From an uncultured Actinomycetota bacterium (lineage in GTDB: Bacteria; Actinomycetota; Actinomycetes; JAFAQI01), in the NCBI GenBank assembly GCA_963770565.1, contig CAVYQE010000002.1, positions 656,672 to 720,671 of the forward strand: a DNA stretch of 64,000 nucleotides, given 5' to 3'. The translations under genes were made by a program, and so were the position numbers. Under the pieces are notes generated by a model that was given only the letters and a program-made list of their open reading frames with translations, was not told where the DNA came from and did not search any database. Positions 9,654 to 26,718 of this stretch are shown in pieces; positions within the stretch are counted from its first letter, which is position 1; each line of letters starts with the position of its first letter.

Positions 9654-9712
9654 GCCGAGGCTCCGGGATTTGAACCCGGGATGGGCGCGAACCCAAACCG
9701 CATTAGCAGTGC
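9654..9712 (-). repeat. Duplicated 3' portion of tRNA-Ser(GCU) (attR-like partial tRNA)
   Basis: 9657..9712 is identical over 56 bp to 26632..26687 (59 bp with one mismatch if extended to 9654/26629). The copy covers the anticodon stem through the T-arm and acceptor 3' strand of the tRNA at 26630..26718, in the same orientation. Confidence 0.85.
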
Positions 9713-10528
9713 TCCGTGAAGCTGTCCGTAGGTGGCCGCCGATGACCACCGATGACCGGCCTGGAAAGCGTTGATGCAGGTCAGGGCCTTGCGCCGGCCC
9801 GCGACGCACTTTGGCGGACAATCGCGGACGCCGCAACGTTGTGCGAGAACTGCAACTGAAACTGCAACTGGTGGCAACCGAGACAGTGACCCAGGCGACG
9901 ACGCCGGATGTGCGTCTGACAGCCCTCTCGTGGGTGAGGATCGAACCCATCGAGCAGGCCCAGGCTAAAGAGTGCCCGTGAACCCGCGCGGGCAGGCTCC
10001 TGACCTGCAACTTCACCGCAGAAGGCAGGATTTGAGCGTGGCTTCCTTACCGACCTGAACCGTGGCGAACATTTCCTGGCAGACGCTGATGCCCTGTGCA
10101 TCGAAATCACAATGGAGGTGCGGCGGCTCAGAACGGCACGCCCGCTCGGTGCGCGGTACGTACGCCGGAGGCTGCGGCGGCCAGCCATCGCTGGACGCCG
10201 CGGCGGAGTCCACGAACCCAGAACATGCCCCCGGGCGCTGGTGGGGCGCTCATGCGAGAGACGAGGTCGAGCATCAGAGGCGGCCTTTGTCGAAGCGGTC
10301 GGGGTCCGATGTGCCGGCCGCCTCGCTGACTCAGCGAGGGACCGCGACAGCCCAACAGTGCGAGTCGTTGACCGCGAGGAGCTCGACTCCGAGCAGGCTT
10401 GAACGCCAGACGGCGCTGCTTCCGCTCCCGCTCCGAGGCCGATGCATCCATCAAGTCCAGCAGATGCCGGTCAGATCAGCAACCGGTTGGGACGCCCGCA
10501 GCCGCGTCCTAACCCGCCCGGTCTCGCC

Positions 10529-12736
10529 TTAGTGCGAGAACCGCACCGTCGGCAGCGCGCGGCGTAGCCACCGCGGGCTGTACCAGGCGTTGTGACCTGT
10601 CAGGCGAAGGATCACAGGCAGGATGATCAACCGGATCGACAACGCGTCAAGGAAGACTGCCACCGCCAGGATGACGCCCATCTCCTTGGGTGCGAGCGGG
10701 CCGGACAGCGCGAATGTGAGAAAGACCGCAACCATGACGCCGGCAGCCGCGACGACTACCCGCCCCGAGGTCCGCAACGCGGTGCGCATCGCGTCGTACG
10801 GGTCGCCGGTCGCGTCGTAGTGCTCACGCGCGGCGGACAGCAAGAACAGCGTGTAGTCCATCGCGACGCCCGAGAGCATCGCTCCGAAGAACAGCGGTGC
10901 CCAGGCGTCCACAAACCCCTGCGGCTGGAAGTGAAGCAGCCCGGACAGGTGGCCGTCCTGGAAGATCAGCCGGGCGACACCGAACGCGGCTGCGATCGAG
11001 GCGAGGTTGGTGATCACACCGGCAAACGCGACAAGCGGGCTACCGAGCGCGACGAGCAGTAGCAGGAACCCGAGCAAGATCAGCAGACCGAAAACCAACG
11101 GCGTGCGTGCGCTGAGGACCTTCTGCAGGTCGTGGTTCTCGGCAGCAGCACCGCCGATCAGCGTGCCGGCCGGGAGCTCGGTACGGATCCGGTCGATGGT
11201 CGCTCCGGTCGTCGCGCTGGAAGCGTCTGTGGTTGGGACCGCAAGAAGCATCTCGTACCCGTGACTGGTGCCGCCTGGCATCACAGCAGCGATGCCTCGA
11301 TCGGCGCGAAGCGCACTGGTTGCCTCGCCGACCGACGAGCTCGGCGCCACGATTTGCAGGGTGCCCGGTGCGCCAGGACCGAACGCGCTCACGACCTGTT
11401 CATAGCCGGCGCGTGCCGACTGGTCCGCGGGCACGATCGCGATACTCGGCATCCCGGTGCGCAGGCCCAGCACGGGCCAGGCGAGCATCGCGAGAAGTGC
11501 GACCACAAACGACGCGGCCAGCCAGGGACGGCGGTGCAGCAGACCGCCCCACCGATGGAGCAGATTCTCCAGGCCGCGCGGGAGATGCGGCTCGTGGAAG
11601 TGTCGCCGTTCGAACGCCTTGATCTGCCTTCGCGCCTCGCCGAACGGGAGTGCTCCATTGTTGATCCGCGGGCCGAGTCGGCCGAGCACGGCGGGCAGCA
11701 GCGTCAGCGTCGCGGCAAGTACGGCGACAACGGCGAGCATGATCCCGAGCGCCATACTGCGGAACGCCGGGCTGGGCACGATCAGCACGGTCGACAGCGA
11801 CACGAGGACGGTCAGGCCGCTGAACGCGACCGCCTTGCCAGCGGTTGCCATCGTCTCGCCGACGGCACCAATCGCGTCGTCGCCACCACGGCGGGCCATC
11901 GCGTGACGAAACCGTACGACGATGAACAAGGCGTAGTCGATGCCGAGCGCAAGTGCAAACATCATGGCGAAGTTCAAGGCCCAGATGCTGATCGGTGCCA
12001 CCCTGGTCGCCACTACGAGAGCTCCCGCGGCGCTCAACAGCCCGACGAGGGTCAACATCAGTGGCAGGCCTGCTGCAACGAGGCTGCCGAAGGCAAGCAC
12101 GAGGACGGCCAGCGTGACCGGCCAGGAAAGGATCTCTGAGCGAATCATCGCCGAGTGATTCACCTTGTTGAAGTCCGACCACAACGCGCTGTCACCGGTG
12201 AGCTCCACTGACACCGACGAACTCGACAGCTTCGACAGGGGACCGGTCAGCGCGTCTGCGGCGCGAACCATGTCATTGGCGCCGGCTGCGGCACCGGCTT
12301 GGATCACCCCGGTCCGGCCATCACGTGAGAGGCTTACACCCGCAGTCGGACCGACCACTGTGCTCACTCGAGGGTCGGCGCGCAAGAGTTTCTCGACGCG
12401 GCTCACTGCCGCTTGAGCGGCCGGGTCCGTCGCGATTGGCCGGGTCGAGTCATGAACGACAACCTGCAGTGCAGTGGCGCTCAAACCGGCGAAGTCGCGG
12501 GCGATCACCGCACGAGCCTGGACCGACTGGCTCCCGTTCGCCTGCCACCCGGCTCCCGCTAAGGACGAGTCCACCTTAGGCGCGAACGCGCCGAAGCCAA
12601 CAAGAACGACCAACCAGCCGAGGAGCACGATCCGGAAGTGAGTGGCAGCCCACACGCCCAGCCGGGCCAGCCACGCCGGGCTCGGTGTCGCTGCGGGGCT
12701 CGGCGGGGTCGTCGCGCGCGGGGCGACGGTTGTCAT
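10529..12736 (-). CDS. MMPL-family (RND superfamily) membrane transporter
   Basis: 735 aa. N-terminal TM followed by a large periplasmic loop, twice-repeated six-TM bundles, typical MmpL architecture. Last gene of the cstB-like/cstR-like operon; AAGGAG RBS at 12741-12746. Confidence 0.85.
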   Translation of the reverse strand: MTTVAPRATTPPSPAATPSPAWLARLGVWAATHFRIVLLGWLVVLVGFGAFAPKVDSSLAGAGWQANGSQSVQARAVIARDFAGLSATALQVVVHDSTRPIATDPAAQAAVSRVEKLLRADPRVSTVVGPTAGVSLSRDGRTGVIQAGAAAGANDMVRAADALTGPLSKLSSSSVSVELTGDSALWSDFNKVNHSAMIRSEILSWPVTLAVLVLAFGSLVAAGLPLMLTLVGLLSAAGALVVATRVAPISIWALNFAMMFALALGIDYALFIVVRFRHAMARRGGDDAIGAVGETMATAGKAVAFSGLTVLVSLSTVLIVPSPAFRSMALGIMLAVVAVLAATLTLLPAVLGRLGPRINNGALPFGEARRQIKAFERRHFHEPHLPRGLENLLHRWGGLLHRRPWLAASFVVALLAMLAWPVLGLRTGMPSIAIVPADQSARAGYEQVVSAFGPGAPGTLQIVAPSSSVGEATSALRADRGIAAVMPGGTSHGYEMLLAVPTTDASSATTGATIDRIRTELPAGTLIGGAAAENHDLQKVLSARTPLVFGLLILLGFLLLLVALGSPLVAFAGVITNLASIAAAFGVARLIFQDGHLSGLLHFQPQGFVDAWAPLFFGAMLSGVAMDYTLFLLSAAREHYDATGDPYDAMRTALRTSGRVVVAAAGVMVAVFLTFALSGPLAPKEMGVILAVAVFLDALSIRLIILPVILRLTGHNAWYSPRWLRRALPTVRFSH

Positions 12737-12803
12737 GGTTCTCCTTACATTGCCCGGTAGGGTATCTGTGATCCACTAACGATCAGCTGCGTATTGAGTC
12801 CGA

Positions 12804-13079
12804 TCAGGCCAAGCTGAGAAAGAGCTTCTCCATCTGGTCCGGGCTCAACGGCTCAACCTCACCCGCGGCGGCCGCCGACATGCACTGCCGCATCCCAGAG
12901 GCGAGCAACTTGTAGCCGGCGCGGTCGAACGCCTTGCTCACCGCGGCCATCTGGGTCACGATGTCGGCGCAGTCCCGGCCGTCCTCGAGCATCCGGATCA
13001 CACCGCCGACCTGTCCCTCGATTCGGCGCAGGCGCTTGACGATCTCGTCGGTCGCGCCGTTGTCGAGCTCCATGTGCAT
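12804..13079 (-). CDS. CsoR/CstR/RcnR-family (DUF156) repressor, CstR-like (two Cys, no metal-ligand His)
   Basis: MHMELDNGATDEIVKRLRRIEGQVGGVIRMLEDGRDCADIVTQMAAVSKAFDRAGYKLLASGMRQCMSAAAAGEVE...: conserved RxxGQxxGxxxM, a first Cys in ...DC.DIV.Q..A and a second Cys 29 residues later; no His four residues before the second Cys. GGAAGGA RBS. The upstream part of the track ORF 12804..13367 is not coding. Confidence 0.85.
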   Translation of the reverse strand: MHMELDNGATDEIVKRLRRIEGQVGGVIRMLEDGRDCADIVTQMAAVSKAFDRAGYKLLASGMRQCMSAAAAGEVEPLSPDQMEKLFLSLA

Positions 13080-13107
13080 TTCCTTCCTCAGCGATGTCGA
13101 TCTGACC

Positions 13108-14484
13108 TCACGTCGCGACCAACTGGCACCACGCCGTGTAGCCACCGAGCAGATCCGAGACGTCACGGGCACCGGCGCGCGCAAGGACGCTCGACGCCAC
13201 GATCGAGCGCCAACCAGTCGCGCAGTACACGAGGATAGGTTTGTCGAGGTCGAGTTCCGCGACCCGGCTCGGCAACTCGGCCAGCGGGATCGCGACGGCG
13301 CCGGAGAGCATGCCAGCGGCACGCTCGGTGGGGTTGCGCAGGTCGACAAGTTGAAGCTCGTCGACATTGTCGATGGCGTTCAGCGCCTCGGCGACGGTCA
13401 ACCGGCTCGAACGCGCAGTCTGTGCCGGGTCGGCACCCAGGAGACCGATCGGGTCGGCGACGTAGCCAATGACGTTGTCGTATCCGATCCGGGCGAGCCG
13501 CATCGCGTCACGTTGCTCCGCGCCGGTGGGACTGAGCAAGATCACCCTCGTTTCGGGTGGGAGCACGGACCCCACCGTCTCCGCGAGCCTGCCCTCGCCG
13601 CTCACGTTGACGGATCCGCTGAGATGCCCGGCGGCGTACTCCCCCGGCTCGCGGGTATCGAGCACGACGGCACCGGTCACCCGTTCTGCCTCGACGGTGG
13701 CCAGGTCCAGCGCCGGAACGGTCCGTGCGCCGTCTAGGCGTTCGTGATCCTGCCGGTTGAGCAGGGCGTTGAAGCCGAAATAGCCGGGTGCCGCCGGTTG
13801 GTCGGCGGTGACGATCGCGACGAACTGGTCCTCGGCCATCGGCCGGCATGCGTAGTTGAGAACTCGCTGCTCACCGATGGTCGACTGGCGCTCGGTCGAG
13901 AGGTTCTTGCCGCAGGCTGAGCCCGCACCGTGGGCAGGGAAAACGCGCACGGAATCGGGCAGACCCATGAGCTTGACCTGCACCGACTGGTACAGCCGGC
14001 GGGCGAGCTCGTCGGCGGTCACTCCCACCGAGGCCAGCAAGTCGGGTCTTCCGACATCGCCGATGAACAGCGCGTCGCCGGTGAGGACGCCCCACGGCAC
14101 CTCGTCAACAGCATGTTCGTAGACCAGCACGCTGATTGATTCCGGGGTGTGGCCTGGAGTCGCCATGATCTCGAGCGTCACGTCGCCGAGGTCGATCCGC
14201 TCACCATCGCGAAGGGCGCGGAACGCGAAGTCCGGCGCCGCCTCCTGACCGAAGCCGATCCAGGCACCCGTCGCAGCGGCGAGCTCCAAGTGCCCCGCGA
14301 CGAAGTCGGCGTGGAAATGGGTGTCGATCACCCCGACGATGGTCAGCCCCGCGCTGGCCGCCTCGGCGAGGTAGTCCTCGACGTCCCGACGCGGGTCGAC
14401 GACGACGGCGTGACGAGACGCCTCGTCAGCGATGAGGTACGACGCCTGCGACAGGCACTCGATGTAGTGCTGCGTAAAGATCAC
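13108..14484 (-). CDS. CstB-like persulfide dioxygenase (MBL fold) fused to two rhodanese domains
   Basis: The N-terminus VIFTQHYIECLSQASYLIADE... aligns with the CstB/ETHE1 start. Metal motif THFHADFVAGH. C-terminal rhodanese with active Cys (VYCATGWRS) preceded by an inactive rhodanese-like domain. GTG start at 14484 with GGAGG 5 nt upstream; the alternative is a leaderless ATG at 14505. Confidence 0.85.
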   Translation of the reverse strand: MIFTQHYIECLSQASYLIADEASRHAVVVDPRRDVEDYLAEAASAGLTIVGVIDTHFHADFVAGHLELAAATGAWIGFGQEAAPDFAFRALRDGERIDLGDVTLEIMATPGHTPESISVLVYEHAVDEVPWGVLTGDALFIGDVGRPDLLASVGVTADELARRLYQSVQVKLMGLPDSVRVFPAHGAGSACGKNLSTERQSTIGEQRVLNYACRPMAEDQFVAIVTADQPAAPGYFGFNALLNRQDHERLDGARTVPALDLATVEAERVTGAVVLDTREPGEYAAGHLSGSVNVSGEGRLAETVGSVLPPETRVILLSPTGAEQRDAMRLARIGYDNVIGYVADPIGLLGADPAQTARSSRLTVAEALNAIDNVDELQLVDLRNPTERAAGMLSGAVAIPLAELPSRVAELDLDKPILVYCATGWRSIVASSVLARAGARDVSDLLGGYTAWCQLVAT

Positions 14485-14503
14485 TTCTGCCTCCGCTGCT
14501 ACC

Positions 14504-14520
14504 ATACCCCGTGAGGTATA
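14504..14520. promoter_or_regulatory. CsoR/CstR-type operator op1 (ATACCCCGTGAGGTATA), 20 bp upstream of the cstB-like start
   Basis: TACCC-N4-AGGTA palindrome (right half-site 4/5). Same family as op2-op6. Overlaps the alternative ATG at 14505. Confidence 0.7.
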
Positions 14521-14745
14521 TGTTGTCGACTCGAAGGAGCTTCTTGTGTGCATGCCCACTACGTGCCGTGATTGCGGCAAGACGACCTGGCGCGGCTGTG
14601 GCCAGCACGTCGACGCCGTCATGGCCGGTGTGCAAACGTCCCAACGCTGCACTTGCCCCCGGTCGACCCGCTCATCGCGGTCAGTGCTGACCCGACTGAT
14701 CGGTCGGACCTCCGCGTAGGCGATGGCGGGCCTCGACGGAGTGTG

Positions 14746-15912
14746 CTACTCGAGCTTGAGCAACGCCATCAGCCGTTCGGCAACCTGACCGCCCGCGTCG
14801 ATCGCGACGTCAACCGCATCGCTCACCCGCAGGTCGTCACGCAGCAACGAGCGGACCTCCGCCATTGTCGTGTCAGCGGCCGCGTTGGGGCGGCCGGCGG
14901 CGGACCGCAGCGCCTCGAGACGATCTGCGGCGCGCACCAGGCACGACCGGTCGTACTGCCAACTCTCAGACCACGGGCGGTCAAGCAACATGGTGCGAAT
15001 GACGCCAGCCGAGTGATCCGCGAGCAGGTCGCGCACTAGCACAAGGTTTCCCACGGACTTCGCCATCTTCACGCCGTCGACATTTACCACTCCGACGCGA
15101 AACCATCGGCGCGCGTAGGGTCGCACTCCGGTCAACGCCTCACCGATCGCCGCCTCGAATGCGTGATGGGGGTAGCGCAGGTCGGCACCGCCGGCGTGGA
15201 TGTCGACGCCCAGCCCGAACGTGCTGAGCACCATCGCAGTGCACCCGGCGTGCCAGCCTGGACGGCCCGGACCCCATGGGCTGTCCCATCGCTGGTCGGC
15301 CCCGGTCGAGGCCTGCCACAAAGCAGCGTCCAGCGGCTGCCGCTTCGCCGGGTCGGCCAGGTTGCCGCCGTACTCCGCGGCGAGCGCGAGCGCATCGGCC
15401 TCGGATAGACCTTCGGACTCGGCGATTCCCGTACCGGGCAGGTAGACGCTGCCCTCGCTGACGTAGGCGGCTCCACTCTCAACGAGGGCCGCCGCGAGCG
15501 CCACCACCTGGCTGATGTGGTGACGAGCGCGAGGCTCGTGATGCGGCCGGGAGACCCGCAGCGCTGCCATGTCAGCATCGAAGTGGTACTGCTGCAGGTA
15601 GGCGAAGGTGTCGTTCGGGGTGCCCGCACGGTCGGCCGCAGCGCTGAGCACGTCGTCGATGTCGGTGACGTTCCGGCAGACGATCGGGGTGGTGCGACTG
15701 TCGGCGAGCACGGCCGTGAGGACGTCGACCCAGACGTACGTCGCGGCGTGACCCAGATGCGTGACGTCGTAGGGGGTGATCCCGCAGACGTAGAGGCGCG
15801 CCCGGTCGATCATGGGCAGCGGCGATCCGGCGATCGACATCGGTTCTGGCGGGGCGGCGGTCGGGTAGACGATCTGCACGCCCCCATGATCCTCCGCGCC
15901 GCGGCGGCTCAT
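14746..15912 (-). CDS. MshC-like cysteine ligase (class I aminoacyl-tRNA-synthetase-like, CysRS paralogue lacking an anticodon-binding domain)
   Basis: HIGH-type motif CGITPYDVTHLGHAATYV and KMSKS-type motif KMAKSVGN. 388 aa. Strong local similarity to my recollection of mycobacterial MshC (FGPGRPGWH..., DMAALRV...). Start overlaps the Nudix stop (ATGA coupling). Confidence 0.75.
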   Translation of the reverse strand: MSRRGAEDHGGVQIVYPTAAPPEPMSIAGSPLPMIDRARLYVCGITPYDVTHLGHAATYVWVDVLTAVLADSRTTPIVCRNVTDIDDVLSAAADRAGTPNDTFAYLQQYHFDADMAALRVSRPHHEPRARHHISQVVALAAALVESGAAYVSEGSVYLPGTGIAESEGLSEADALALAAEYGGNLADPAKRQPLDAALWQASTGADQRWDSPWGPGRPGWHAGCTAMVLSTFGLGVDIHAGGADLRYPHHAFEAAIGEALTGVRPYARRWFRVGVVNVDGVKMAKSVGNLVLVRDLLADHSAGVIRTMLLDRPWSESWQYDRSCLVRAADRLEALRSAAGRPNAAADTTMAEVRSLLRDDLRVSDAVDVAIDAGGQVAERLMALLKLE

Positions 15913-16364
15913 CGACCGGTCGACGTACTTGGTACGGCAGTGAGGAGGAACTCGCGCTGCTCATCGTGCATCAGTGGCGGGAGCTCGCGGAACCAGCCGT
16001 AGGCCCGGGCCGCGTCATCCAGCTCGATCGTCCCGGTCCATTCGGTGACCTTGAAAGCGATGCCCACCGGGCTGTCCAGGTTGTTGTTGTAGTGGCTGGG
16101 GTACTCGATGTACCCGAGGAGCTCGGCGCGATCCACCGATATCCCGAGTTCCCCCCTCGCGACCCGGGCGACCGCGTCGGTCAGCGGCTCTCCGAATCGG
16201 ACCGTGCCGCCCGGCAGGTGCCACAAGCCTCGGCAGGGCTCGGCATCGCGTCTGGTGAGGAGAACCCCGCGCTCGGAGACCAGCACGACTTCCACAGTCA
16301 GCCGGGGAACCTTGCGGTAAATCGTCCAGAACTCCCGCTCGGACAGCGGGTGGTCCACGTCCAT
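15909..16364 (-). CDS. NUDIX hydrolase
   Basis: Nudix box GLWHLPGGTVRFGEPLTDAVARVARGELG. About 151 aa from the ATG at 16364; the longer track ORF would place the operator inside the coding sequence. First gene of a two-gene operon with the MshC-like ligase. Confidence 0.7.
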   Translation of the reverse strand: MDVDHPLSEREFWTIYRKVPRLTVEVVLVSERGVLLTRRDAEPCRGLWHLPGGTVRFGEPLTDAVARVARGELGISVDRAELLGYIEYPSHYNNNLDSPVGIAFKVTEWTGTIELDDAARAYGWFRELPPLMHDEQREFLLTAVPSTSTGR

Positions 16365-16415
16365 CTCATCAGTCAACGCTCGTTCGCCCCTCGCGTAATA
16401 GGGTCTTAGGTCTCT

Positions 16416-16431
16416 ATACCCACAGGGGTAT
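16416..16431. promoter_or_regulatory. CsoR/CstR-type operator op2 (ATACCCACAGGGGTAT) in the divergent nudix / sqr intergenic region
   Basis: Perfect TACCC-N4-GGGTA palindrome. 52 bp upstream of Nudix ATG 16364 and 74 bp upstream of SQR ATG 16505. Confidence 0.8.
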
Positions 16432-16504
16432 CCCTGGTAGACCGGGGGCATCGTGAGGAAAGCCTGCCCGTTGGACGGTTGGCTCGTCCGCCAAGGAGCA
16501 CCTG

Positions 16505-18270: not shown

Positions 18271-19104
18271 ATGAGGCAGGAGTCACACCCACCGGGCCTG
18301 GCCCGAATCGACCGAACCGGGTCGGTGTCGCTGTGGGCGCAGGTCCGCGCTGATCTGGAGCGACGGCTCGCGGTCGATGAGTTCGACGGTGACTTCCCCG
18401 GCGAACTGGAGCTGACCGCGCAATACGCGGTCAGCCGGCACACCATTCGGGAGGCGTTGCGTCACCTGCGCGCGGAAGGCCTCGTCATCAGTGAGCGCGG
18501 ACGCCGCTCTCGCCTCGCCGACCACGCTGAAATCGAGCAACCGCTCGGCGCGCTCTACAGCCTGTTCGCCTCGGTCGAGGCCGCCGGTCTGGAGCAGCGC
18601 AGCGTCGTCCGCGCCCTTGATCTCCGCGCCGACGGAGTCATCGCGCCGCGACTCGACGTCGAGGAGTCCACCCCACTGCTCTATCTGGAACGGCTCCGTC
18701 TGGCCGGCGAGAAGCCGTTCGCGATGGACCGCGTCTGGCTCCCCGCGTCAGTCGCCGAACCGCTGCTCGACGCGGACTTCACCCACACTGCCCTGTACGA
18801 CGAACTCGCCGCGCGCTGCGGATTCCGCCTGACCGGCGGCCGGGAACACATCCGCGCGGTCCTTCCGACCACGGCCGAACGCAGACTGCTCGAACTCGAC
18901 GACACCACCGCACTGTTCGCGATCGAACGCCTTGGTGAACGGGCCGGCCAGCCAATGGAGTGGCGCCACACCCTGGTCCGTGGCGACCGATTCGCCCTCA
19001 CTGCCGACTTCACCGCCCACACCGGCTACCGGCTCGAGCTGTCCGGCCCCGAACGACAGGCTTCCAACCTCGCGACCGCATCGCAAGGACACGCCCATGG
19101 CTGA
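18271..19104 (+). CDS. GntR-family regulator with UTRA effector domain (HutC/FarR subfamily)
   Basis: N-terminal GntR HTH (...ELELTAQYAVSRHTIREALRHLRAEGLVISERGRRSRLA), C-terminal UTRA-like domain. 277 aa. Embedded in the sqr-rhodanese-tauE gene string. Confidence 0.8.
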   Translation: MRQESHPPGLARIDRTGSVSLWAQVRADLERRLAVDEFDGDFPGELELTAQYAVSRHTIREALRHLRAEGLVISERGRRSRLADHAEIEQPLGALYSLFASVEAAGLEQRSVVRALDLRADGVIAPRLDVEESTPLLYLERLRLAGEKPFAMDRVWLPASVAEPLLDADFTHTALYDELAARCGFRLTGGREHIRAVLPTTAERRLLELDDTTALFAIERLGERAGQPMEWRHTLVRGDRFALTADFTAHTGYRLELSGPERQASNLATASQGHAHG

Positions 19105-19450
19105 CCCCTTCGATCCGCAGACTCGGGTCGACGAAGTCAGCCCGGCCGCAGCGCGGGACCTCGCCGATGCCGGTGCCGTGCTCGTCGATGTCCGTGAGCC
19201 GGACGAATGGGCCGCGGGCCACATCGCCGACGCACAGCACATCCCGCTCGGCGACCTCGACCCTGACCTGTTCGTCGGCGGCCCGCTCGTAGTCGCTGTG
19301 TGCCGCTCGGGGCACCGCTCCGGCACCGCGGCGCTGCGATTGCACGACGCGGGAGTCGACGTCCGCAACATGACGGGCGGAATGAAGGCCTGGCAGGCCG
19401 ACGGCCTGCCCGTCACCCGCGACGACGGCACCACCGGCTCAGTCGCGTGA
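19097..19450 (+). CDS. Single-domain rhodanese sulfurtransferase
   Basis: 117 aa with active-site loop CRSGHRS. Overlaps the gntR stop by 8 nt and the tauE start by 4 nt. Confidence 0.8.
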   Translation: MADPFDPQTRVDEVSPAAARDLADAGAVLVDVREPDEWAAGHIADAQHIPLGDLDPDLFVGGPLVVAVCRSGHRSGTAALRLHDAGVDVRNMTGGMKAWQADGLPVTRDDGTTGSVA

Positions 19451-20370
19451 CGCTCGCCTTGGCACTTCTCCTCGGTGCCGTCATCGGGCTCAGCCTGGGG
19501 GCCCTTGGTGGTGGCGGTTCGATCCTCACCGTCCCGGCGCTCGTGTATGCGCTCGGCGAGAAGGCGTCGGCAGCCACGACCGGCAGCCTGATCATTGTCG
19601 GGATCACCGCGCTCGTTGGTTCCTTCGGCCACGCACGAGCGGGCCGGGTGCGCTGGCGCGCCGGGTTCGGTTTCGGTCTCGCCGGGGTCGCCTCGAGCTC
19701 CCTCGGGACAGCGCTCAACCGTCATATCAACCCGGATGTGCTGCTGCTCGCCTTCGCCGGCCTGGTGGTGATCGCAGCGTCAGGTATGTGGCGTCATGCC
19801 GGGGCTGCCATCGCGGTATCTGGTGATCAGCTCGAGCTTCGCGTCGCCGAGCCTGCTTTGGCGGTGGACGGCTCAAACGCTTCGAGGAGCGCAGCGGTCG
19901 AACTACCCGGCGACCGAGGCATCCGTCCCACACCGGCCAGCCAGCCGGAGGGATCGATCGACTTCCCCGGTGGCTCAACCACCCACGATTCCCTGAGAAC
20001 CGTCCTCAAGGTGGTCGCCGCCGGTCTTATCGTCGGCTTTCTCACCGGGTTCTTCGGTGTTGGCGGCGGCTTCGTCATCGTGCCCGCCCTGGCCCTCGTA
20101 CTCGCCTACCCGATGCCTGAGGCGATCGGAACGTCCCTGCTGATCATCGCCATCAACTCAGCAGCCGCCCTCGGCGAACGAGCCGGCCAACATCAGACAG
20201 TTCATTGGCACGTGATCGCGCCGTTTACGGTCGCGGCTGTTGCCGCCAGCCTCGCCGGCAAGCAGGTCGCCGACCGAGTCGACGGACCAAGGCTGACGCG
20301 CGCCTTCGTCATTCTTCTGATCGCGGTCGCGATCTACACCGCGGTCCGCAGCATCGTCGGCCTCAGCTGA
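19447..20370 (+). CDS. TauE/SafE (DUF81) sulfite/sulfur-compound exporter family membrane protein
   Basis: Duplicated 4-TM halves, each with a glycine-rich motif: LGALGGGGSILTVPAL and FFGVGGGFVIVPAL. GTG start overlapping the rhodanese stop. Confidence 0.8.
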   Translation: MTLALALLLGAVIGLSLGALGGGGSILTVPALVYALGEKASAATTGSLIIVGITALVGSFGHARAGRVRWRAGFGFGLAGVASSSLGTALNRHINPDVLLLAFAGLVVIAASGMWRHAGAAIAVSGDQLELRVAEPALAVDGSNASRSAAVELPGDRGIRPTPASQPEGSIDFPGGSTTHDSLRTVLKVVAAGLIVGFLTGFFGVGGGFVIVPALALVLAYPMPEAIGTSLLIIAINSAAALGERAGQHQTVHWHVIAPFTVAAVAASLAGKQVADRVDGPRLTRAFVILLIAVAIYTAVRSIVGLS

Positions 20371-20495
20371 GCAGACGGGAGACACCTGCTGTCACACGAC
20401 ACGACGGGCAAGGGTGGAGACTTCAACTGGGCACTAGCGGGGACTTCCAACTGGCCATAGTTGGGAATAGACGCCGGGCGAGTGCCGTTGAATCC

Positions 20496-20513
20496 TATAC
20501 CCCTAGGGGTATA
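20496..20513. promoter_or_regulatory. CsoR/CstR-type operator op3 (TATACCCCTAGGGGTATA)
   Basis: Perfect 18-bp palindrome of the form TACCC-N4-GGGTA. 17 bp upstream of the GGAGGAG RBS and ATG 20530 of the DUF2892-like gene. Confidence 0.85.
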
Positions 20514-20529
20514 CTGGAGGAGAAACGCC

Positions 20530-20739
20530 ATGGAACTCGTACGCTTTATGCAGACTTCGATAGGAAGAAGCCTTCGGGCCGTGCTCGGGGTGGTCCTGAT
20601 CGCCGTCGGTGTCGTCCTTGGTGGTGCCTGGCTAGCGCTGGCTGGTATCGGTCTCGTTCCCCTTATCGTCGGATCGGCGGGTCTTTGCCTCATCGCCCCT
20701 CTACTCCACGCTCCGATCCGTGGAGCTCAGAGATCATGA
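20530..20739 (+). CDS. Small two-TM membrane protein, DUF2892/YgaP-C-terminal-like
   Basis: 69 aa: MELVRFMQTSIGRSLRAVLGVVLIAVGVVLGGAWLALAGIGLVPLIVGSAGLCLIAPLL; two hydrophobic helices and a Cys near the second. Strong RBS. This family commonly partners rhodaneses. Confidence 0.45.
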   Translation: MELVRFMQTSIGRSLRAVLGVVLIAVGVVLGGAWLALAGIGLVPLIVGSAGLCLIAPLLHAPIRGAQRS

Positions 20740-20794
20740 GTGAGGCGCGCTCCGATTTCGGCAACTCACACATGACAGTTGACGGGACACGAGC

Positions 20795-21400
20795 GTGACC
20801 ACGCTGGACCGGCAAGGGTGGGATGAGCGGTACCGGGACACCGAGCTGGTGTGGGGCTCTGGCCCCAACCGATTTCTCGTGGACCATGTGACGAACCTGA
20901 CGCCAGGGACTGCGCTGGACGTGGCGTGCGGTGAGGGTCGCAACGCCATCTGGCTTGCGCATCAGGGATGGCGGGTGGTCGGGGTCGACTTCTCGTCCGT
21001 TGGTCTTGACAAGGCGCGAGGGCTGGCAGCGGAGACTGGTGTCACGGCGGAGTGGGTGCAGGGTGACCTCACCACATGGGAGCCACCGAAAAGCTATGAC
21101 CTCGTCGTTGTCATGTACCTGCATTTGCCAGGCGCTGTGCGTCACAGTGTCTTTGCGCGGATGGCAAAGTCGGTGGCACCGGGCGGGACCATGCTCGTGG
21201 TAGGTCATGACATGTTGAACCTCACCGAGGGAACCGGCGGTCCACAGAATGCTGCCGTTCTCTACGGGCCTGAGGACGTTGTCGGCGATATCGGCTCGGT
21301 ACTTGCGATCGAGAGAGCGGAGCGTGTTCACCGGCCGGTCTCCGGTTCGGAGGGCGAGGCGATGGCCATCGACGTCCTGGTTCGCGCTCACCGATCCTGA
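20795..21400 (+). CDS. Class I SAM-dependent methyltransferase (TehB/thiopurine-methyltransferase-like)
   Basis: Motif I LDVACGEGRNAIWLA, motif post-I VVGVDFS. 201 aa. Downstream of op3 in the same orientation. Confidence 0.8.
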   Translation: MTTLDRQGWDERYRDTELVWGSGPNRFLVDHVTNLTPGTALDVACGEGRNAIWLAHQGWRVVGVDFSSVGLDKARGLAAETGVTAEWVQGDLTTWEPPKSYDLVVVMYLHLPGAVRHSVFARMAKSVAPGGTMLVVGHDMLNLTEGTGGPQNAAVLYGPEDVVGDIGSVLAIERAERVHRPVSGSEGEAMAIDVLVRAHRS

Positions 21401-21413
21401 ACCTTTACAGGCC

Positions 21414-22127
21414 TTAGGCGGTGGCAGATGGCGCACGGAGCCACCGCAACCATTCGGTGTCGCCCATTAGGTCCAGCCGGCGCCAGAGCACGGGGTTATC
21501 CGTAGCCTGGCTTGCGTGGAGGGCGATGGCGCGATGCTGAATAGAACGGTCGACATGAAGCACGATGTCGACCTCGTCCTCGCTGCAGCCGGCAAAGCAG
21601 GTGCCGAAGGCGGCGTTGAGGGAATCGGCCACCGAGTCCGGGATCGACCAAGCAATCACAGGCAGATCAAGTAACTCGGCCGCACGCAAGGCTGCTTCTG
21701 TCGCCCGTTGATGGTCGCGGTGTCCCGTGATCCCACCGAGATCGAAGACAAGTAGCCCATGAGCACCAACCGCGTTGACATATCCAACGACATCGTCGAC
21801 CAGGATGTCGAGTTCGATGGAGTCGAGACTTCCATCAGCGTGGTCCAGCAGCCGCACATCGCTGACCGTGAGTGCATCGGCGGCGGCGGCAAGCTCGGCG
21901 ACCCGGACGACACGAAGGTCACCTGACGTCCCGTGCAGGGCTGACGCCTCGCCGTGAGTGAAACTGAGCACGGCGGTCGATGTGCCGGCGGCCGTCAAAC
22001 TAGCGATGACAGCGCCCAAGCCGAAGGACTCGTCGTCGGGGTGGGCGCACACAGCAACTACGGACGGCAGCCCCACAGCATCCAGCGTCATATCGCAATC
22101 TGACGCGCTGGGACGCCGCGCGGTCAT
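21414..22127 (-). CDS. LmbE/PIG-L-family N-acetylglucosaminyl deacetylase (MshB/Mca-like)
   Basis: Signature AHPDDE (VCAHPDDESF) and HxDH (GHRDHQ). 237 aa. Start overlaps the thioredoxin stop (ATGA), so co-transcribed with trx. Confidence 0.8.
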   Translation of the reverse strand: MTARRPSASDCDMTLDAVGLPSVVAVCAHPDDESFGLGAVIASLTAAGTSTAVLSFTHGEASALHGTSGDLRVVRVAELAAAADALTVSDVRLLDHADGSLDSIELDILVDDVVGYVNAVGAHGLLVFDLGGITGHRDHQRATEAALRAAELLDLPVIAWSIPDSVADSLNAAFGTCFAGCSEDEVDIVLHVDRSIQHRAIALHASQATDNPVLWRRLDLMGDTEWLRWLRAPSATA

Positions 22128-22492
22128 GACACGACGTTGGACTTGGCGACGAGGCGGTGGATCTCGTCCATGTCGAGGTCACGCACCTTCCCAATGAGCT
22201 CGTCCAGTGCAGCAGCCGGCAGTGCTCCGGGCTCCCTGTAGACGATCACCTCGTCGCGCAAGATCATGAGGGTCGGGATCGACATGATGCCGAACCCAGA
22301 GGCCATCTCTTGCTCGCCCTCAATGTCCACTTTGGCGAACAAGAGATCCGAGTGAGTTTCAGAGGCCTTCTCGAACACGGGGGCGAATGCCCTGCAGGGT
22401 CCGCACCACGACGCCCAGAAGTCCACCAGCACGATCTCATTGCTGGTCACCACCGTGTCGAAATCCCCTTTGGTAACAGTCACCGTGGCCAC
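22124..22492 (-). CDS. trxA: Thioredoxin
   Basis: WCGPC active site (WASWCGPCRAF). 122 aa. GTG start with GGGAAGGG RBS. op4 lies 18 bp upstream. Confidence 0.9.
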   Translation of the reverse strand: MATVTVTKGDFDTVVTSNEIVLVDFWASWCGPCRAFAPVFEKASETHSDLLFAKVDIEGEQEMASGFGIMSIPTLMILRDEVIVYREPGALPAAALDELIGKVRDLDMDEIHRLVAKSNVVS

Positions 22493-22509
22493 TGGCGCCC
22501 TTCCCTGGG

Positions 22510-22525
22510 TACCCCCTGGGGTATA
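22510..22525. promoter_or_regulatory. CsoR/CstR-type operator op4 (TACCCCCTGGGGTATA) upstream of trx-lmbE
   Basis: TACCC-N4-GGGTA palindrome 18 bp upstream of the trx GTG. Confidence 0.8.
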
Positions 22526-22575
22526 GTCTACAAGGACGGCCCGCCTGGTGTCATTCCCCCTCGCACCACAATGAG

Positions 22576-22588
22576 ATACCCGGGGTAT
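22576..22588. promoter_or_regulatory. Weak/atypical operator-like palindrome op5 (ATACCCGGGGTAT)
   Basis: Half-sites present but the spacer is 1 instead of 4. Lies 51 bp from op4 in the same intergenic region. Could be an auxiliary site or coincidence. Confidence 0.25.
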
Positions 22589-22648
22589 GACCGGGGTGGG
22601 GTCGCGTTGGACCGGTCGCTCGGTGGCGCTGATGGCGTCGTCTTGCTG

Positions 22649-23278
22649 CTATTGCGACGGACTAGCCGGATTCGCGGCCACGCCGAGGGTGAACCAGCTC
22701 CACGGTTTCGGTCCGTTGGCGTAGCGCCGCTCGATCCGCTCGATCACAAAGCCGGCATCGCCGACGAGAGCCGGAGCATCACGTGTGAGGTGGCAACCAT
22801 CTCCCAGTCGGCGCTGCCACGGGTCGAGACGGTATTGCCACCGGGCCACCGAGGCGTCGGGAGAGAGTCCGTGTTCGAGGAAATGGAAGCGGCCTCCCGG
22901 CCGGAGCACCCGGCGGAGTTCGGACAGAACCTTGGTGGGGTCGGCGACGGTGCAGAGCGTGAACGTAGAGAGCGCTGCGTCGCAGCTGGCGTCGTCAAGG
23001 GGGATCGCCTGGCCGTCGAGACCGATGTGCTCGACGGGTGTCCTGCCGGCCATGACCCGCTTCGTAGCCAATCTTCGTGCGAGCGCGGCCGGTTCGACTG
23101 CTAACACCTTCTCCACTTCTGGTGGATAGTGCTCGACGTTGAGACCGGAACCGAATCCGATCTCGACGACCCGGCCAGCGAGTCCCTCCGTCACCTCGGC
23201 GCGCCAGCCTCGCAGAGCGCCCGTGCTACATGCCCGGTCTACCAGGCGGGGAAGGACCTGCTCGCGGTAGAAGCTCAC
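22649..23278 (-). CDS. Class I SAM-dependent methyltransferase (UbiE/Methyltransf_11-like)
   Basis: Motif I VVEIGFGSGLN, motif II/III region PGGRFHFLEH. The first ~240 codons of the track ORF 22649..23998 are Arg/His/Pro-rich wrong-frame sequence. No ATG; GTG start assumed at 23278. Confidence 0.65.
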   Translation of the reverse strand: MSFYREQVLPRLVDRACSTGALRGWRAEVTEGLAGRVVEIGFGSGLNVEHYPPEVEKVLAVEPAALARRLATKRVMAGRTPVEHIGLDGQAIPLDDASCDAALSTFTLCTVADPTKVLSELRRVLRPGGRFHFLEHGLSPDASVARWQYRLDPWQRRLGDGCHLTRDAPALVGDAGFVIERIERRYANGPKPWSWFTLGVAANPASPSQ

Positions 23279-23397
23279 GGTCGCGACGCTACCGGTGCCG
23301 CCGGAGGACAACACCGCTGTGAGTGTCCGTGATCGAGGCGGGCGTCGTTTGGAGACTCCCTTGCGGTTGGCGTAGCGCGGATCTGCGCAACAAACCG

Positions 23398-24084
23398 TCA
23401 AGCGACGCGGATTGCCGCCTCGATCTCGACTCGGGCCAGCTCCTTGGTGCAGAAGAACCAGTCCTCGCACTCGATGCCGTCGATCCCGTCGTCCATGCGC
23501 TCCTTGGCGGTGCCGCATGATCCGGCGGTGGGGACGATGACCCGCTCGCCGGGCTGCCAGTCGGCGGGGGTGGCGACTGAGAAATGGTCGGCGGTCTGCA
23601 GCGCCTTGACCACCCGCAACAGTTCGGGGAAATTGCGCCCGATGCTGAGCGGGTAGTAGATGATCGTCCGGATCACGCCCTCGGGGTCGATGACAAACAC
23701 CGCGCGTACCGCCTTGGTGGAGTCCTCGCCGGGCATGATCATCCCGTACTTGCGGGCCACCTCCATCGTGATGTCCTCGATGAGGGGGAAGGTGACCTCG
23801 ACGTTCTTCATGTCGCGGTAGGTGATCTTGTCCTTGATGGTGCGCAGCCAGGCGATGTGGCTGTAGAGGCCGTCGACCGACAAGCCCACGAGGTCGGTGT
23901 TGTAGGCCGCGAACTGCTCTTGCATCGACGCGAAGGTCATGAACTCGCTGGTACAGACCGGCGTGAAGTCGGCTGGGTGCGAGAACAAGATGACCCACTT
24001 GCCGACGTAGTCGGACGGGAAGTTGATCTCCCCTTGTGTCGTCACGGCGGTAAAGGATGGCGCCGGGTCGCCGATGCGCGGCAT
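23398..24084 (-). CDS. 1-Cys peroxiredoxin (Prx6-like, AhpC/TSA family)
   Basis: Peroxidatic Cys motif FTPVCTSEF; MPRIGDPAPSF N-terminus; 228 aa from ATG 24084. The track extension to 24186 has low GC3. Confidence 0.85.
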   Translation of the reverse strand: MPRIGDPAPSFTAVTTQGEINFPSDYVGKWVILFSHPADFTPVCTSEFMTFASMQEQFAAYNTDLVGLSVDGLYSHIAWLRTIKDKITYRDMKNVEVTFPLIEDITMEVARKYGMIMPGEDSTKAVRAVFVIDPEGVIRTIIYYPLSIGRNFPELLRVVKALQTADHFSVATPADWQPGERVIVPTAGSCGTAKERMDDGIDGIECEDWFFCTKELARVEIEAAIRVA

Positions 24085-24185
24085 CGTCGGGACAAGGGCA
24101 GGCGTCTCAATACTGGTCACGGTGCGGCTTCCTCTGTTCAAATCGTCGGTGGCCCCGCAAAAGGGGGATCTACTATGACCAACCA

Positions 24186-24202
24186 ATACCCATGGGGGTA
24201 TA
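24186..24202. promoter_or_regulatory. CsoR/CstR-type operator op6 (ATACCCATGGGGGTATA) upstream of the peroxiredoxin
   Basis: TACCC-N4-GGGTA palindrome about 100 bp upstream of prx ATG 24084. Confidence 0.7.
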
Positions 24203-24990
24203 TTCCGCGTGATCGCCAGTTCCGTGACGCCCGCATCCGCATCTTTGCCCCCTGCTCGTCCAGCGTTCTACGTGGCGCGGCTCCGCGGCTCTCCCCGCGG
24301 GTCAGCACTGGCTGATCCAGGCGCCCGCGGTGGTGTTCGCGGCCCTTCGTCGGGTCGCGCAGCACGATCCGCTGCTGCTGGCCAACGGGGTCAATCTGGC
24401 CGAAGCTGAGGCCGGCTTCGACGGTTTGAACCCAAGCCCACTCTGGGATAGTGCACCTGTGGTCTGGTCAATGCGGTTCGGCGCAGCGACGGCCAGGATC
24501 CCGTCGTTGAGTCGATCTGCTGCATTCGATGGACACGCGCCGACGCTGCGCGACGGCAGGCGCTGTGGCGCCGTCGTGCTTCTCGTCGTGGCACTAGCGC
24601 TCTTCGTCCGTGACGTTCCTGCGCTTACGACCGACAGCGGCGGTGTTCATCCGGCCGTGAGCCATGCGCAGTTCGTCGCACATGGCGCCCTCGGCGTCGA
24701 CGCCGCCACCCTCACACGCAGCCTGGATCGCGGCGGCGCCCGCTCCGCGGAGCCCGCCGTTCAGGCCGATTCGCTCAGAGAACGCCCGGTCGATGCACCT
24801 TGGGCGAAACTGCCCGCGACCCAATGGGTGCCACCGCCTCGATCGTTGCCAACCGCCCGCGCACGCGCGCCCTGAAGCCGGTCTTCCTCCCTTCGTACTT
24901 AGTCACTGCGGCACTGCACGCGCACCTTCGGCCTTGGTAACGGCCAGCGTCCGCGCGGCCGGTGAATCAACTTCGCAGAAAGGACCGGGC

Positions 24991-25800
24991 GTGTCAGCTA
25001 GCAACACCACATCCCCGACGACAGACAGAATCGCACGTAGCGCAGCTATCTCCGAGCCCGAGCGGAGCCCGACCGGTGTCTCGTCCCGCCTCGCCGCCAT
25101 CCGCCGGGCCGCTCCGGAGGCGCTACTCGTTGTGGCCTTGTACATGGCATACACCGCGACCCGAAATCTCCTCCCGTCAGCACGTCGGAGCGCGATCGCG
25201 CGAGGACTGGCCGTGGAAAGGTTCGAGGGTTCGCTGCACCTTGACCCTGAACGCGCGCTCAACCAATTCGTGGCAAATCACGCCGTGTTGGCGAGCACGT
25301 GTGATTACTACTACGCGGTCGCCCACTTCGCGGTGACCCTCGCGGTGATGATGCTTCTATACCGACGAAGTCGGCCGACGGCACGTCGACTGGCAGCGGC
25401 CTGGTACGTCACCAACCTGCTGGCGCTGCTGGGCTTCTGGCTCTACGCGCTGGCGCCACCCAGGCTCCTTCCCGGCCGCGCATACGTCGACACTGTCGTC
25501 GTGTTCCATACCTGGGGGAGCTGGGGGACGGGTGCGGTGGCGTCGGCCTCGAACCAATACGCCGCGATGCCCAGCCTGCACCTCGCCTGGGCGAGTTGGT
25601 GCACGGTCGGAATCTGGCACCTGACCCGACGCCGCTCGGTGCGACTCCTTGGCGTCGCGTATCCCCTGGCGACGCTGTTCGTCGTGCTCGGCACCGCAAA
25701 CCACTATCTGCTCGACGCCTTCGCGGGGGTCGTGGCGATGGCCATCGGGCTTGCGGTGGTGTGGTACGCACAAGAAACGATGGGGGGCTCGATCGGATGA
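24991..25800 (+). CDS. PAP2-superfamily membrane protein (AUR1/IPC-synthase-like phosphatase fold), island paralogue
   Basis: Motifs NQYAAMPSLHLAWA and ANHYLLD. Paralogous to 36671..37588 (NQYAAMPSLHVGWA, ANHYLLDVVAG). GTG start at 24991 with AAAGGA RBS. Confidence 0.65.
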   Translation: MSASNTTSPTTDRIARSAAISEPERSPTGVSSRLAAIRRAAPEALLVVALYMAYTATRNLLPSARRSAIARGLAVERFEGSLHLDPERALNQFVANHAVLASTCDYYYAVAHFAVTLAVMMLLYRRSRPTARRLAAAWYVTNLLALLGFWLYALAPPRLLPGRAYVDTVVVFHTWGSWGTGAVASASNQYAAMPSLHLAWASWCTVGIWHLTRRRSVRLLGVAYPLATLFVVLGTANHYLLDAFAGVVAMAIGLAVVWYAQETMGGSIG

Positions 25801-25806
25801 GAGGGG

Positions 25807-26235
25807 GTGGGCCGCACTGACGATTTGCCAGGTGTGGTCGGGCCAATGCCCCCGACACACAGACACAGAATCCACGGACCTACCGAAGTGACCGCCCCGC
25901 AGGACACGTCCCAACAAGCGATCAAACCGTTGCCCGGGTGGCGTACCGGCGATCTCTCTTTCCGGGCGCTCGCGCTCGGTTACCTCCTGTTGGCGACTGC
26001 TGTGCTAGCTCTGGCCGCATCCGGCTCGTGGGTGGGCATGGCGGGCGCCGGCCTCGTCACCGCAGGCGAGATCGCCCTCGTCATCGTCTGGTCGGGCGCG
26101 CCGAATGCTGGTCAATTTGCCCGCTCCTCGCGACGGCCAGGCTTACCTCGTGGCGCCAAGCGGTCGCACCGAACTACCGGGTCGGGCGCCGATGCACCTG
26201 ACGATCCGACAAGGGGCGGGTCGAGCCCCACCTGA
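25807..26235 (+). CDS. Hypothetical small membrane protein
   Basis: Two predicted TM helices (LALGYLLLATAVLALAASGSWVGMAGAGLVTAGEIALVIVW). Mixed codon bias; weak support. Confidence 0.25.
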   Translation: MGRTDDLPGVVGPMPPTHRHRIHGPTEVTAPQDTSQQAIKPLPGWRTGDLSFRALALGYLLLATAVLALAASGSWVGMAGAGLVTAGEIALVIVWSGAPNAGQFARSSRRPGLPRGAKRSHRTTGSGADAPDDPTRGGSSPT

Positions 26236-26629
26236 GCGAGTCGCGTCGGAATGTCGCGGCCGTCAGCGTAGGTGGCCGGCACGGGCAGCTCGACGGTCAC
26301 GTTGGCGACGCTCTATGACTACGAGGCGCGGCCGGTCGGACGCACCATTGCGCCGGTGGGTCATCTCATTGCCCGGCCGAGGTTGAGCAGAACCGGCAAA
26401 TTGTCGGTCGACGTCTGCTGCCGGGCGCCTCGCCATGCGGTCGCTGCCGTCGCTTGCCCGGTCTAATAGCGTATAGAGGCGGGGCCGATTCATCGAGTGC
26501 CCGGATCGCTCACGAAACCTCGGATGCCGGTTCCGGATCGGTCCGGGCCGATCAGGTGAAGATGATCTGGCCGCCGGCGGCCTGCAAGCGAGTTACATCA
26601 GTGTGTTCAGCGAAAGCGCAGGTCAGCAG

Positions 26630-26718
26630 CGGAGGCTCCGGGATTTGAACCCGGGATGGGCGCGAACCCAAACCGCATTAGCAGTGCGGCGCCATAGACC
26701 GGACTAGGCGAAGCCTCC
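26630..26718 (-). tRNA. tRNA-Ser (anticodon GCU), type II with long variable arm
   Basis: Reverse complement GGAGGCTTCGCCTAGTCCGGTCTATGGCGCCGCACTGCTAATGCGGTTTGGGTTCGCGCCCATCCCGGGTTCAAATCCCGGAGCCTCCG. Anticodon loop CTGCTAA, long variable arm, T-arm CCGGGTTCAAATCCCGG. Its 3' 56 nt are duplicated at 9657..9712. Confidence 0.9.

Follow-up and report, generated by a model that had tools for sequence, protein, structure and literature searches.

How did an intact tRNA-Ser(GCU) gene come to be separated by some 17 kb from a partial copy of its own 3′ portion? The question is raised by a stretch of 64,000 nucleotides from an uncultured Actinomycetota bacterium (contig CAVYQE010000002.1, positions 656,672–720,671; hereafter the window). 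Our answer is that the DNA between the two copies is probably a horizontally acquired island that was integrated at the tRNA gene and that now persists as a defective remnant of an actinomycete integrative and conjugative element (AICE), resembling a cis-mobilizable element (CIME) and carrying a reactive-sulfur regulon. This answer builds on the repeat itself, on empty sites in relatives, on the homology of the island ends to known arms, on the absence of mobility genes, on composition and on the distribution of operators.

ARAGORN predicts three tRNA genes in the window, one of which is tRNA-Ser(gct) on the minus strand (26629–26718), and the Rfam tRNA model matches this gene over its full length (26630–26718, 54.7 bits); the partial copy is not called. 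The repeat search returned a direct repeat of 59 nt (9654–9712 and 26629–26687) with 98% identity, which is the longest within positions 8000–28500. Its single mismatch is at 9656/26631, and 9657–9712 is exactly identical to 26632–26687 (56 nt), in agreement with the raw sequence. The repeat starts 3 nt into the anticodon stem, in its 5′ strand (GCACTGCTAATGCGG), and ends with the discriminator base and one C. The partial copy is found 16,975 bp away, beyond the 3′ end of the tRNA. The first-pass annotation had described 56 identical base pairs (59 with one mismatch) in direct orientation, had taken the second copy for the 3′ portion of an intact tRNA-Ser(GCU) gene and had placed the partial copy downstream of the tRNA 3′ end, and the independent searches agree with it on all of these points. 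For a 20-nt piece of the repeat, chance predicts 0.01 occurrences in the window; there are exactly two, and a third match has three mismatches. A chance origin of the repeat is excluded.

Relatives of the host show the site without the island. The gene adjoining the tRNA (26749–28194) encodes a protein of 481 residues with no Pfam domain and few relatives, the nearest of which is 82% identical. Contigs encoding this nearest relative come from nine assemblies with one common gene order (loci L003–L012; hereafter the sister taxon): AMP-ligase, the 483-residue protein, tRNA-Ser(GCU), a gene for 315 residues, ppc, polysaccharide deacetylase and tRNA-Arg(ACG). The 315-residue gene is a homologue of window 8276–9505, and ppc and AMP-ligase are 95% and 96% identical, respectively, to those of the window. 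In the sister taxon, tRNA-Ser(GCU) is joined directly to the ppc side with nothing between. The same empty arrangement (hyp506, tRNA-Ser(GCU), ppc, deacetylase, tRNA-Arg) is found in a more distant relative, L097, in which the counterpart of the 481-residue protein is 51% identical. An unoccupied tRNA-Ser(GCU) joined to the flank of the partial copy is what the first-pass annotation had proposed to look for. In a three-way alignment, the attB of the relative follows the attL side of the window up to the end of the tRNA and then continues as the left flank of attR (shared sequence …CTCCGCCACG…GGATCGCCTGCAGGGC…TAGGGTCCTCCGCATGCTGAC). As read from this alignment, the two junctions correspond to the B-O-P′ and P-O-B′ pattern of site-specific integration, and the inserted DNA amounts to 16,975 bp, i.e. 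the 16,916-bp island plus one core. Two of the sister-taxon contigs (L008 and L011) end at tRNA-Ser(GCU), the contig of L008 running precisely to the final base of the att core (...CTCCGC). Such breaks are expected from strain-level presence or absence of an insert and may have this origin; repeats among tRNA genes could also cause them.

The ends of the two tRNA copies record the exchange. Leftward of the core at 9654–9712 lies the original downstream flank, including an encoded CCA, and the terminal CCA of the tRNA is genome-encoded in both the sister taxon and L097. The rebuilt tRNA of the window ends in …CTCCG-C-TG, and the encoded CCA survives beside the partial copy (26626–26632 versus 9650–9656). 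At integration, the encoded CCA was swapped for C-TG, and the rebuilt tRNA must depend on a CCA-adding enzyme. The 5′ part of the gene is chromosomal, and the attL core presumably came from the element. With the base at 9656 the G1-C72 pair would be lost, and this mismatch is therefore most simply explained as a later mutation in a functionless partial copy.

The island is compositionally foreign. Its GC content is 66.1% compared with 69.1% outside, the mean GC at third codon positions is 0.786 for 14 island genes versus 0.879 for 26 genes from the rest of the window (Mann–Whitney p = 2.5e-5), and its tetranucleotide distance from the rest is 0.155, beyond the range of all sixteen control chunks of the same size (0.076–0.108). 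A palindromic repeat of the host with the core GCAATGTCACATTGC is present in seven intergenic copies in the window outside the island and in none inside. Three of its occurrences are paired units of ∼82 nt whose cores are separated by 62 nt, and one copy stands alone; the repeat resembles a REP/MITE-type element or a site for a regulator. The solo copy is inserted in the B′ flank at a distance of 25 nt from the partial copy of the tRNA; the homologous flank of the sister taxon does not have it.

Both ends of the island resemble the arms of a former attP. The putative P arm beside the partial copy shows 59–74% homology over ∼220–245 nt to the P arms of L095/L112, L174, L175 and L176, and shares with L095, ∼135 nt from the core, the 25-mer CCAGTTGCAGTTTCAGTTGCAGTTC and several conserved blocks. 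It contains a 22-nt arm motif and also a short tandem repeat that is specific to the window, not being found in the other P arms of the family. The P′ arm at the tRNA end is truncated. Here, the window is 90% identical to L160 over 142 nt ending at 26587 (blastn), and a MAFFT alignment shows homology to the P′ arms of L160, L095 and L175 that stops just before their motif. The P′ arm of the window thus has no motif, whereas every other family member has one within ∼60–85 nt of the tRNA.

When metagenome contigs were searched with the 22-mer, 91 stretches were obtained, of which 17 have the layout of the window, with the motif followed by an arm of 110–135 nt and then a 3′ fragment of tRNA-Ser(GCU). 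The motif and arm precede a tRNA-Lys(CUU) fragment in 16 stretches; an intact tRNA-Ser(GCU) is followed after ∼60 nt by the motif in ten; two or three are tRNA-Ser(GGA) variants; and 27 are other high-GC stretches and 18 low-GC simple repeats. At six of the ten loci with an intact tRNA (L103, L111, L129, L148, L157 and L173), a full or largely intact tyrosine integrase gene follows in reverse orientation, its stop codon abutting the motif. The integrase gene of L157 (Phage_integrase, 2e-25) precedes genes for RepSA (‘replication initiator protein, pSAM2’, 9e-100) and for an FtsK_SpoIIIE protein (2e-13). Int, RepSA and FtsK/SpoIIIE are the backbone of an AICE (PMC2440964). In such pSAM2-type AICEs from soil metagenomes, the motif separates tRNA-Ser(GCU) from the integrase gene. 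These layouts beside Int–RepSA–FtsK place the motif on both attP arms of an AICE-type family. The motif is probably an arm-type integrase-binding site, and the CAGTTGCAGTT repeats of the att system are a candidate target of the N-terminal domain of the L157-type integrase. An AICE-type origin of the island is indicated by its surviving P arm, which has the motif and the layout of the att arms beside Int, RepSA and FtsK-like elements at tRNA-Ser(GCU).

The distribution of the motif extends beyond this tRNA. It precedes 3′ fragments of tRNA-Lys(CUU) in L098, L113, L121, L123, L127, L164, L170, L171, L180, L183 and others, and flanks tRNA-Ser(GGA) beside a 37%-identical integrase in L118, L165 and L166; its presence at all three tRNAs points to one arm design serving several targets. 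Four matches in viral contigs were low-GC simple repeats and were rejected as unrelated. Plasmid and phage records match the P arm in its tRNA part only, and no occurrence of the arm motif AGTTGCAGTTTCAGTTGCAGTT was noted in the AICE literature that was searched.

No mobility gene accompanies these arms. Pfam and NCBIfam searches of all substantial open reading frames (ORFs) of the island found no integrase, excisionase, replication or transfer protein, and Pfam searches of the other large ORFs of the 64-kb window gave none of these either. A gene beside tRNA-Ser(UGA) in the window was considered as an integrase and rejected, as it encodes a chromate transporter. Six-frame Pfam searches of the island ends (25750–26640 and 9700–10560, ∼0.85 kb each, E ≤ 5) gave no integrase remnant, and tblastn searches of the window with AICE Int, RepSA (that of L157) and FtsK-like Tra proteins gave chance matches only (best E = 0.14). 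Within the island, no further internal core or arm was found that would mark it as composite. The locus therefore shows the repeat, the empty site and the deviant composition of an integrated tRNA island but not an island-borne integrase, and the tRNA att site with related arms of a pSAM2-type AICE but not its Int/Xis, RepSA or FtsK/SpoIIIE Tra. The first-pass annotation had taken the arrangement for that of a tyrosine-integrase island. Its tRNA and att layout stands; with no integrase in the island or window and a truncated tRNA-proximal arm, the element is better described as a defective remnant than as a complete island of this kind.

Related loci show how such remnants are arranged. L095, from a metagenome-assembled genome (MAG) of Mycobacteriales, has an insert of its own at tRNA-Ser(GCU) with a diverged copy of the tRNA 3′ part 4.75 kb downstream, and metagenome pieces that extend it (L112 and L174) carry a third copy, identical to the first, 5.9 kb further on. 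The internal junctions of this array read P arm–core–P′ arm, i.e. complete attP-like sites, and the P-arm sequence ahead of the second copy is homologous to window 9713–9875. No integrase is present in the L095 units over the 18 kb available. A LuxR gene of L095 was considered as an orthologue of the LuxR gene of the window and rejected (27% identity). At the attL of the integrase-bearing subfamily, decay has left the last 52 codons of the integrase gene (L109 and L188), ∼15 codons (L115) or none (L160); L188 is a 2-kb islet between two cores. The decayed loci form a series of progressive integrase loss with the window at its far end. L160 and L175 have no integrase, and their arm motifs are intact. 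On inspection of the sequence, the unit beside tRNA-Ser(GCU) in L160 (1362–2640) appears to encode a DNA methyltransferase (SPPY motif) and a small helix-turn-helix protein resembling an excisionase.

The favoured course of events would be as follows. A tyrosine integrase would have recombined the attP of an element, bearing a 59-nt tRNA copy from the anticodon stem to the 3′ end, with the 3′ half of tRNA-Ser(GCU), the crossover lying most likely in the anticodon loop. The tRNA would thereby have been rebuilt from its own 5′ part and the 3′ part of the element (attL), and its original 3′ part displaced 17 kb away (attR). The integrase end would have been deleted after integration, an order that we infer, leaving 42 nt of the P′ arm without a motif. 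With no mobility gene left, the island would now be fixed and non-autonomous. That AICEs decay, leave remnants between direct repeats and accrete at tRNA genes is on record (PMC2440964, PMC9513070).

Several points weigh against this account. AICEs typically measure 9–24 kb including their backbone (PMC2440964), and 17 kb of pure cargo with no backbone gene is large for such an element. No integrase-bearing member was found in the arm subfamily of the window (the window, L095/L112/L174, L175, L176 and L160): tblastn and ORF inspection found no integrase in L160, L174 or L175. The AICE link accordingly rests on the motif and architecture shared with a sister subfamily, with no direct ancestor. 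That this subfamily contains several integrase-less units suggests something more systematic than random decay. Finally, the search for a helper integrase was confined to the 64-kb window.

The main uncertainty is whether a helper integrase could still move the island, to which we assign a low probability; the truncated P′ arm argues against it and the integrase-less units keep the idea alive. The island would then be a non-autonomous CIME or satellite, its attL and attR acted on by an AICE integrase and excisionase provided from elsewhere in the genome or by an element that later integrates in tandem; the lack of an integrase of its own would in that case be tolerated or designed rather than a dead end. 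In favour, the two cores agree at 58 of 59 positions and the P arm is intact, motif included; L095 has three cores, at least two integrase-less units and P-O-P′ internal junctions; L160 and L175 lack an integrase yet keep their arm motifs; and for AICE remnants, mobilization in cis following accretion has been put forward (PMC9513070). We nevertheless consider continued mobility unlikely, as the P′ arm of the window has lost the motif that every other family member keeps and no helper integrase is encoded within 64 kb. A wider form of this idea, which we regard as more doubtful still, is that tRNA-Ser(GCU) serves uncultured Mycobacteriales-like actinobacteria as a gene-capture locus, at which tandem integrase-less units depend on an AICE integrase in trans. 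Such a locus would be integron-like but with tRNA-derived cores and multi-gene cassettes, and its units could be excised, reshuffled or exported; the window island would be one unit, each unit having complete att junctions, and L095 an array of at least two.

Other readings fare worse. It is very improbable that the block is ancestral and was lost from both relatives by recombination between the direct repeats. Recombination within the 59-nt repeat would leave exactly the empty site that is seen, but two independent precise losses would be needed (in the sister taxon and in L097), the composition of the block is foreign, the intergenic repeat of the host is missing from it and its arms are homologous to the att arms of mobile elements. 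Still less probable is a tyrosine-integrase island that is complete and autonomous, for which a tRNA with a direct repeat and accessory content would be the typical arrangement: there is no recombinase domain in the substantial ORFs of the island and window or in the six-frame translations of the ends, and tblastn with an AICE integrase gave chance matches only. This reading would survive only if the ORFs with no assigned family concealed a novel class of recombinase. The chance is negligible that the repeat is a coincidence, a duplication artefact or a chimaera of assembly unrelated to integration. The source is a MAG and assemblies can be mis-joined at tRNA repeats, but both flanking genes are found with identical sequence in independent Logan unitigs (run ERR11594399), a break in one unitig falls within the repeat where a two-copy repeat at k = 31 predicts it, and homologues of the P arm by the partial copy are placed likewise at other loci. 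We thus retain the tRNA-integrated, defective AICE-type remnant as the probable identity of the island.

The cargo is predicted to form a coherent regulon for the detoxification of reactive sulfur species (sulfide and persulfide), the biochemical roles being assigned by homology (Table 1). A persulfide dioxygenase (PDO)–rhodanese fusion, an SQR-like protein and a TauE exporter are encoded together. The SQR assignment is the weakest of these three, its SQR_III match (48.7 bits) being far below the NCBIfam cut-off. The PDO, repressor and MMPL genes form one operon (10529..14484) with a collinear homologue in L189. The repressor has cysteines in the segments GRDCAD and MRQCMS, with Gly, not His, four residues before the second Cys; by this family fingerprint (two cysteines, no copper-ligand histidine) it may be of the persulfide-sensor type. 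Homologues of the PAP2_3 protein cover 60% of its ORF, and the true start is probably internal, near 24960. Three ORFs have no assigned family (10062–10532, 24330–24875 and 25807–26235), two of which have homologues in the cargo cluster of L189, which is not at a tRNA.

The sequence ATACC-N6-GGTAT, which is the operator described for ScCsoR of the S. coelicolor CsoR-like/PDO/rhodanese/TauE circuit (PMC7533328), occurs five times in the window compared with 0.24 expected, and none of 100 shuffles reached five. All five operators are inside the island, each directly upstream of an operon; one lies between the NUDIX/ligase genes and the SQR-like gene, which are divergent. The remark in the first-pass annotation that the accessory content stands under a single regulator is therefore largely right, with the qualification that the island encodes one further regulator, a member of the GntR family.

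Table 1. Features of the tRNA-Ser(GCU) locus; positions are those of the window unless another locus is named
Feature	Position	Strand	Evidence or remark
Host palindromic repeat sites	8188-8272, 9610-9635, 28291-28372, 34916-35000		
B′ flank	9500..9653		Alignment; homologous to DNA directly downstream of the sister-taxon tRNA
attR core	9654..9712	-	Putative displaced original tRNA 3′ part; 58/59 identical to attL
Island proper	9713..26628		16,916 bp
P arm of former attP (putative)	9713..9875	-	Homology to other P arms, motif searches
Tandem CCGATGACC(A)CCGATGACC	9739-9757		In P arm, 27 nt from core
Arm motif AACTGCAACTGAAACTGCAACT, 22 nt	9848-9869		Within P arm
MMPL transporter	10529-12736	-	Pfam/NCBIfam
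CsoR/CstR-like repressor, 91 aa	12804-13079	-	Trns_repr_metal, 2.7e-23
PDO-rhodanese (Lactamase_B + Rhodanese)	13108-14484	-	Pfam/NCBIfam
Operator	14504-14519		Upstream of PDO, CsoR-like repressor, MMPL
MshC-like cysteine ligase	14746-15912	-	Below MshC equivalog cut-off
NUDIX protein	15909 to ~16364	-	
Operator	16416-16431		Between NUDIX + MshC-like ligase and SQR-like protein
SQR-like flavoprotein	16505-17965	+	Pyr_redox_2
GntR/UTRA regulator	18271-19104	+	Pfam
TauE/SafE sulfite exporter	19300-20370	+	Pfam
Operator	20497-20512		Upstream of YgaP-like peptide, methyltransferase
YgaP-like transmembrane protein	20530-20739	+	
S-adenosylmethionine (SAM) methyltransferase	20795-21400	+	
PIG-L family deacetylase	21414-22127	-	
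Thioredoxin	22124-22492	-	
Operator, 1 mismatch	22509-22524		Upstream of thioredoxin, PIG-L deacetylase
Methyltransferase-domain ORF	22649 to ~23400	-	Downstream of peroxiredoxin
1-Cys-type peroxiredoxin	23398 to ~24084	-	
Operator	24186-24201		Upstream of peroxiredoxin
PAP2_3 phosphatase-family membrane protein	from 24664	+	
Conserved small ORF	25807-26235	+	Island segment 24664..26235
Truncated P′ arm, 42 nt (TGCTGACCTGCGCTTTCGCTGAACACACTGATGTAACTCGCT)	26587..26628	-	blastn, MAFFT
attL core	26629-26687	-	3′ 59 nt of the tRNA
Intact tRNA-Ser(GCU)	26629..26718	-	ARAGORN, Rfam, alignments with relatives
L095 array	4013-14755 of L095, continued in L112, L174		tRNA, 4.7-kb unit, diverged core, 5.9-kb unit, core

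As an integrated element, the island is closest in its features to the defective AICEs of Streptomyces and other actinomycetes (PMC2440964; PMC9513070). It shares with them the tRNA 3′ half as target, a direct repeat of ∼45–60 nt, att arms related to those of pSAM2-type elements with Int, RepSA and FtsK-like Tra, a deleted backbone with cargo left between the repeats and, in the related locus L095, the accretion of several units at one tRNA. It differs in that the described defective AICEs keep at least traB or part of the backbone, whereas the window island has 17 kb of cargo and no backbone, and in its host, an uncultured Mycobacteriales-like lineage. Decay and the accretion of several elements at one tRNA were described in Streptomyces, with the suggestion that the remnants might be mobilized in cis (PMC9513070); tandem AICEs and remnants have also been described (PMC2440964). 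The CIMEs of the ICESt type in Streptococcus are likewise flanked by att sites and lack integrase and conjugation genes; they are thought to derive by deletion from integrative and conjugative elements and could be moved if a cognate element integrates alongside (PMC5704250; PMC6323972). The integrase family, host phylum and target are different, and one arm of the window island is truncated. In classical tRNA islands of the pathogenicity-island type, which have a P4-like integrase next to the tRNA, accessory cargo of foreign composition likewise lies between an intact tRNA and a distant partial copy of its 3′ part; the window island differs from them in having no integrase and arms of the AICE type rather than the phage P4 type.

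As a regulon, the cargo resembles the cst operon of Staphylococcus aureus (CstR; tauE, cstA, cstB, sqr; PMC5480029) and the circuit of Streptomyces coelicolor (PMC7533328) in combining a CsoR-family repressor with PDO-rhodanese, SQR-like and TauE proteins, and its operator ATACC-N6-GGTAT is that of the latter. It is much larger than either, with five operator-bearing promoters, is located on an integrated island and adds MMPL, the MshC-like ligase, PIG-L, NUDIX, two methyltransferases, thioredoxin, peroxiredoxin and PAP2. The locus thus offers a clean case, with empty sites and both junctions, of a five-operon sulfide/persulfide regulon with a single CsoR-like repressor reaching a soil actinobacterium, probably by an AICE-type att system and then locked in by loss of the integrase end. 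It does not overturn current understanding, as AICE decay and accretion at tRNA genes were already known; what merits further attention is the conserved arm motif, together with the integrase-less arrays. The motif AGTTGCAGTTTCAGTTGCAGTT marks the att sites of a widespread actinobacterial family at tRNA-Ser(GCU), tRNA-Lys(CUU) and tRNA-Ser(GGA) and can be used to find in metagenomes both the elements and their integrase-less derivatives, which integrase-based searches miss.

The cargo genes also occur elsewhere. A search of genome contigs with the SQR-like protein gave 80 loci (63–83% identity) across Actinomycetota, none of which is beside tRNA-Ser(GCU) or corresponds to this element. Parts of the gene set accompany the SQR-like gene in Acidimicrobiaceae and other actinobacterial MAGs. 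No near-identical donor was found, and the closest relative, L189 (73–78% nucleotide identity), is rearranged and not at a tRNA. The MshC-like ligase, NUDIX protein and PIG-L deacetylase accompany the SQR-like gene in several Acidimicrobiaceae MAGs (L056, L069 and L074; 48–62% identity), an association that may point to a low-molecular-weight-thiol branch specialized for the oxidation of sulfide. In L022 (10001–13303), the SQR-like gene is found 3′ of a tRNA-Ser(UGA) gene (11672–11761, minus strand), and a homologue of the AICE integrase (∼40% identity) is located just beyond this tRNA.

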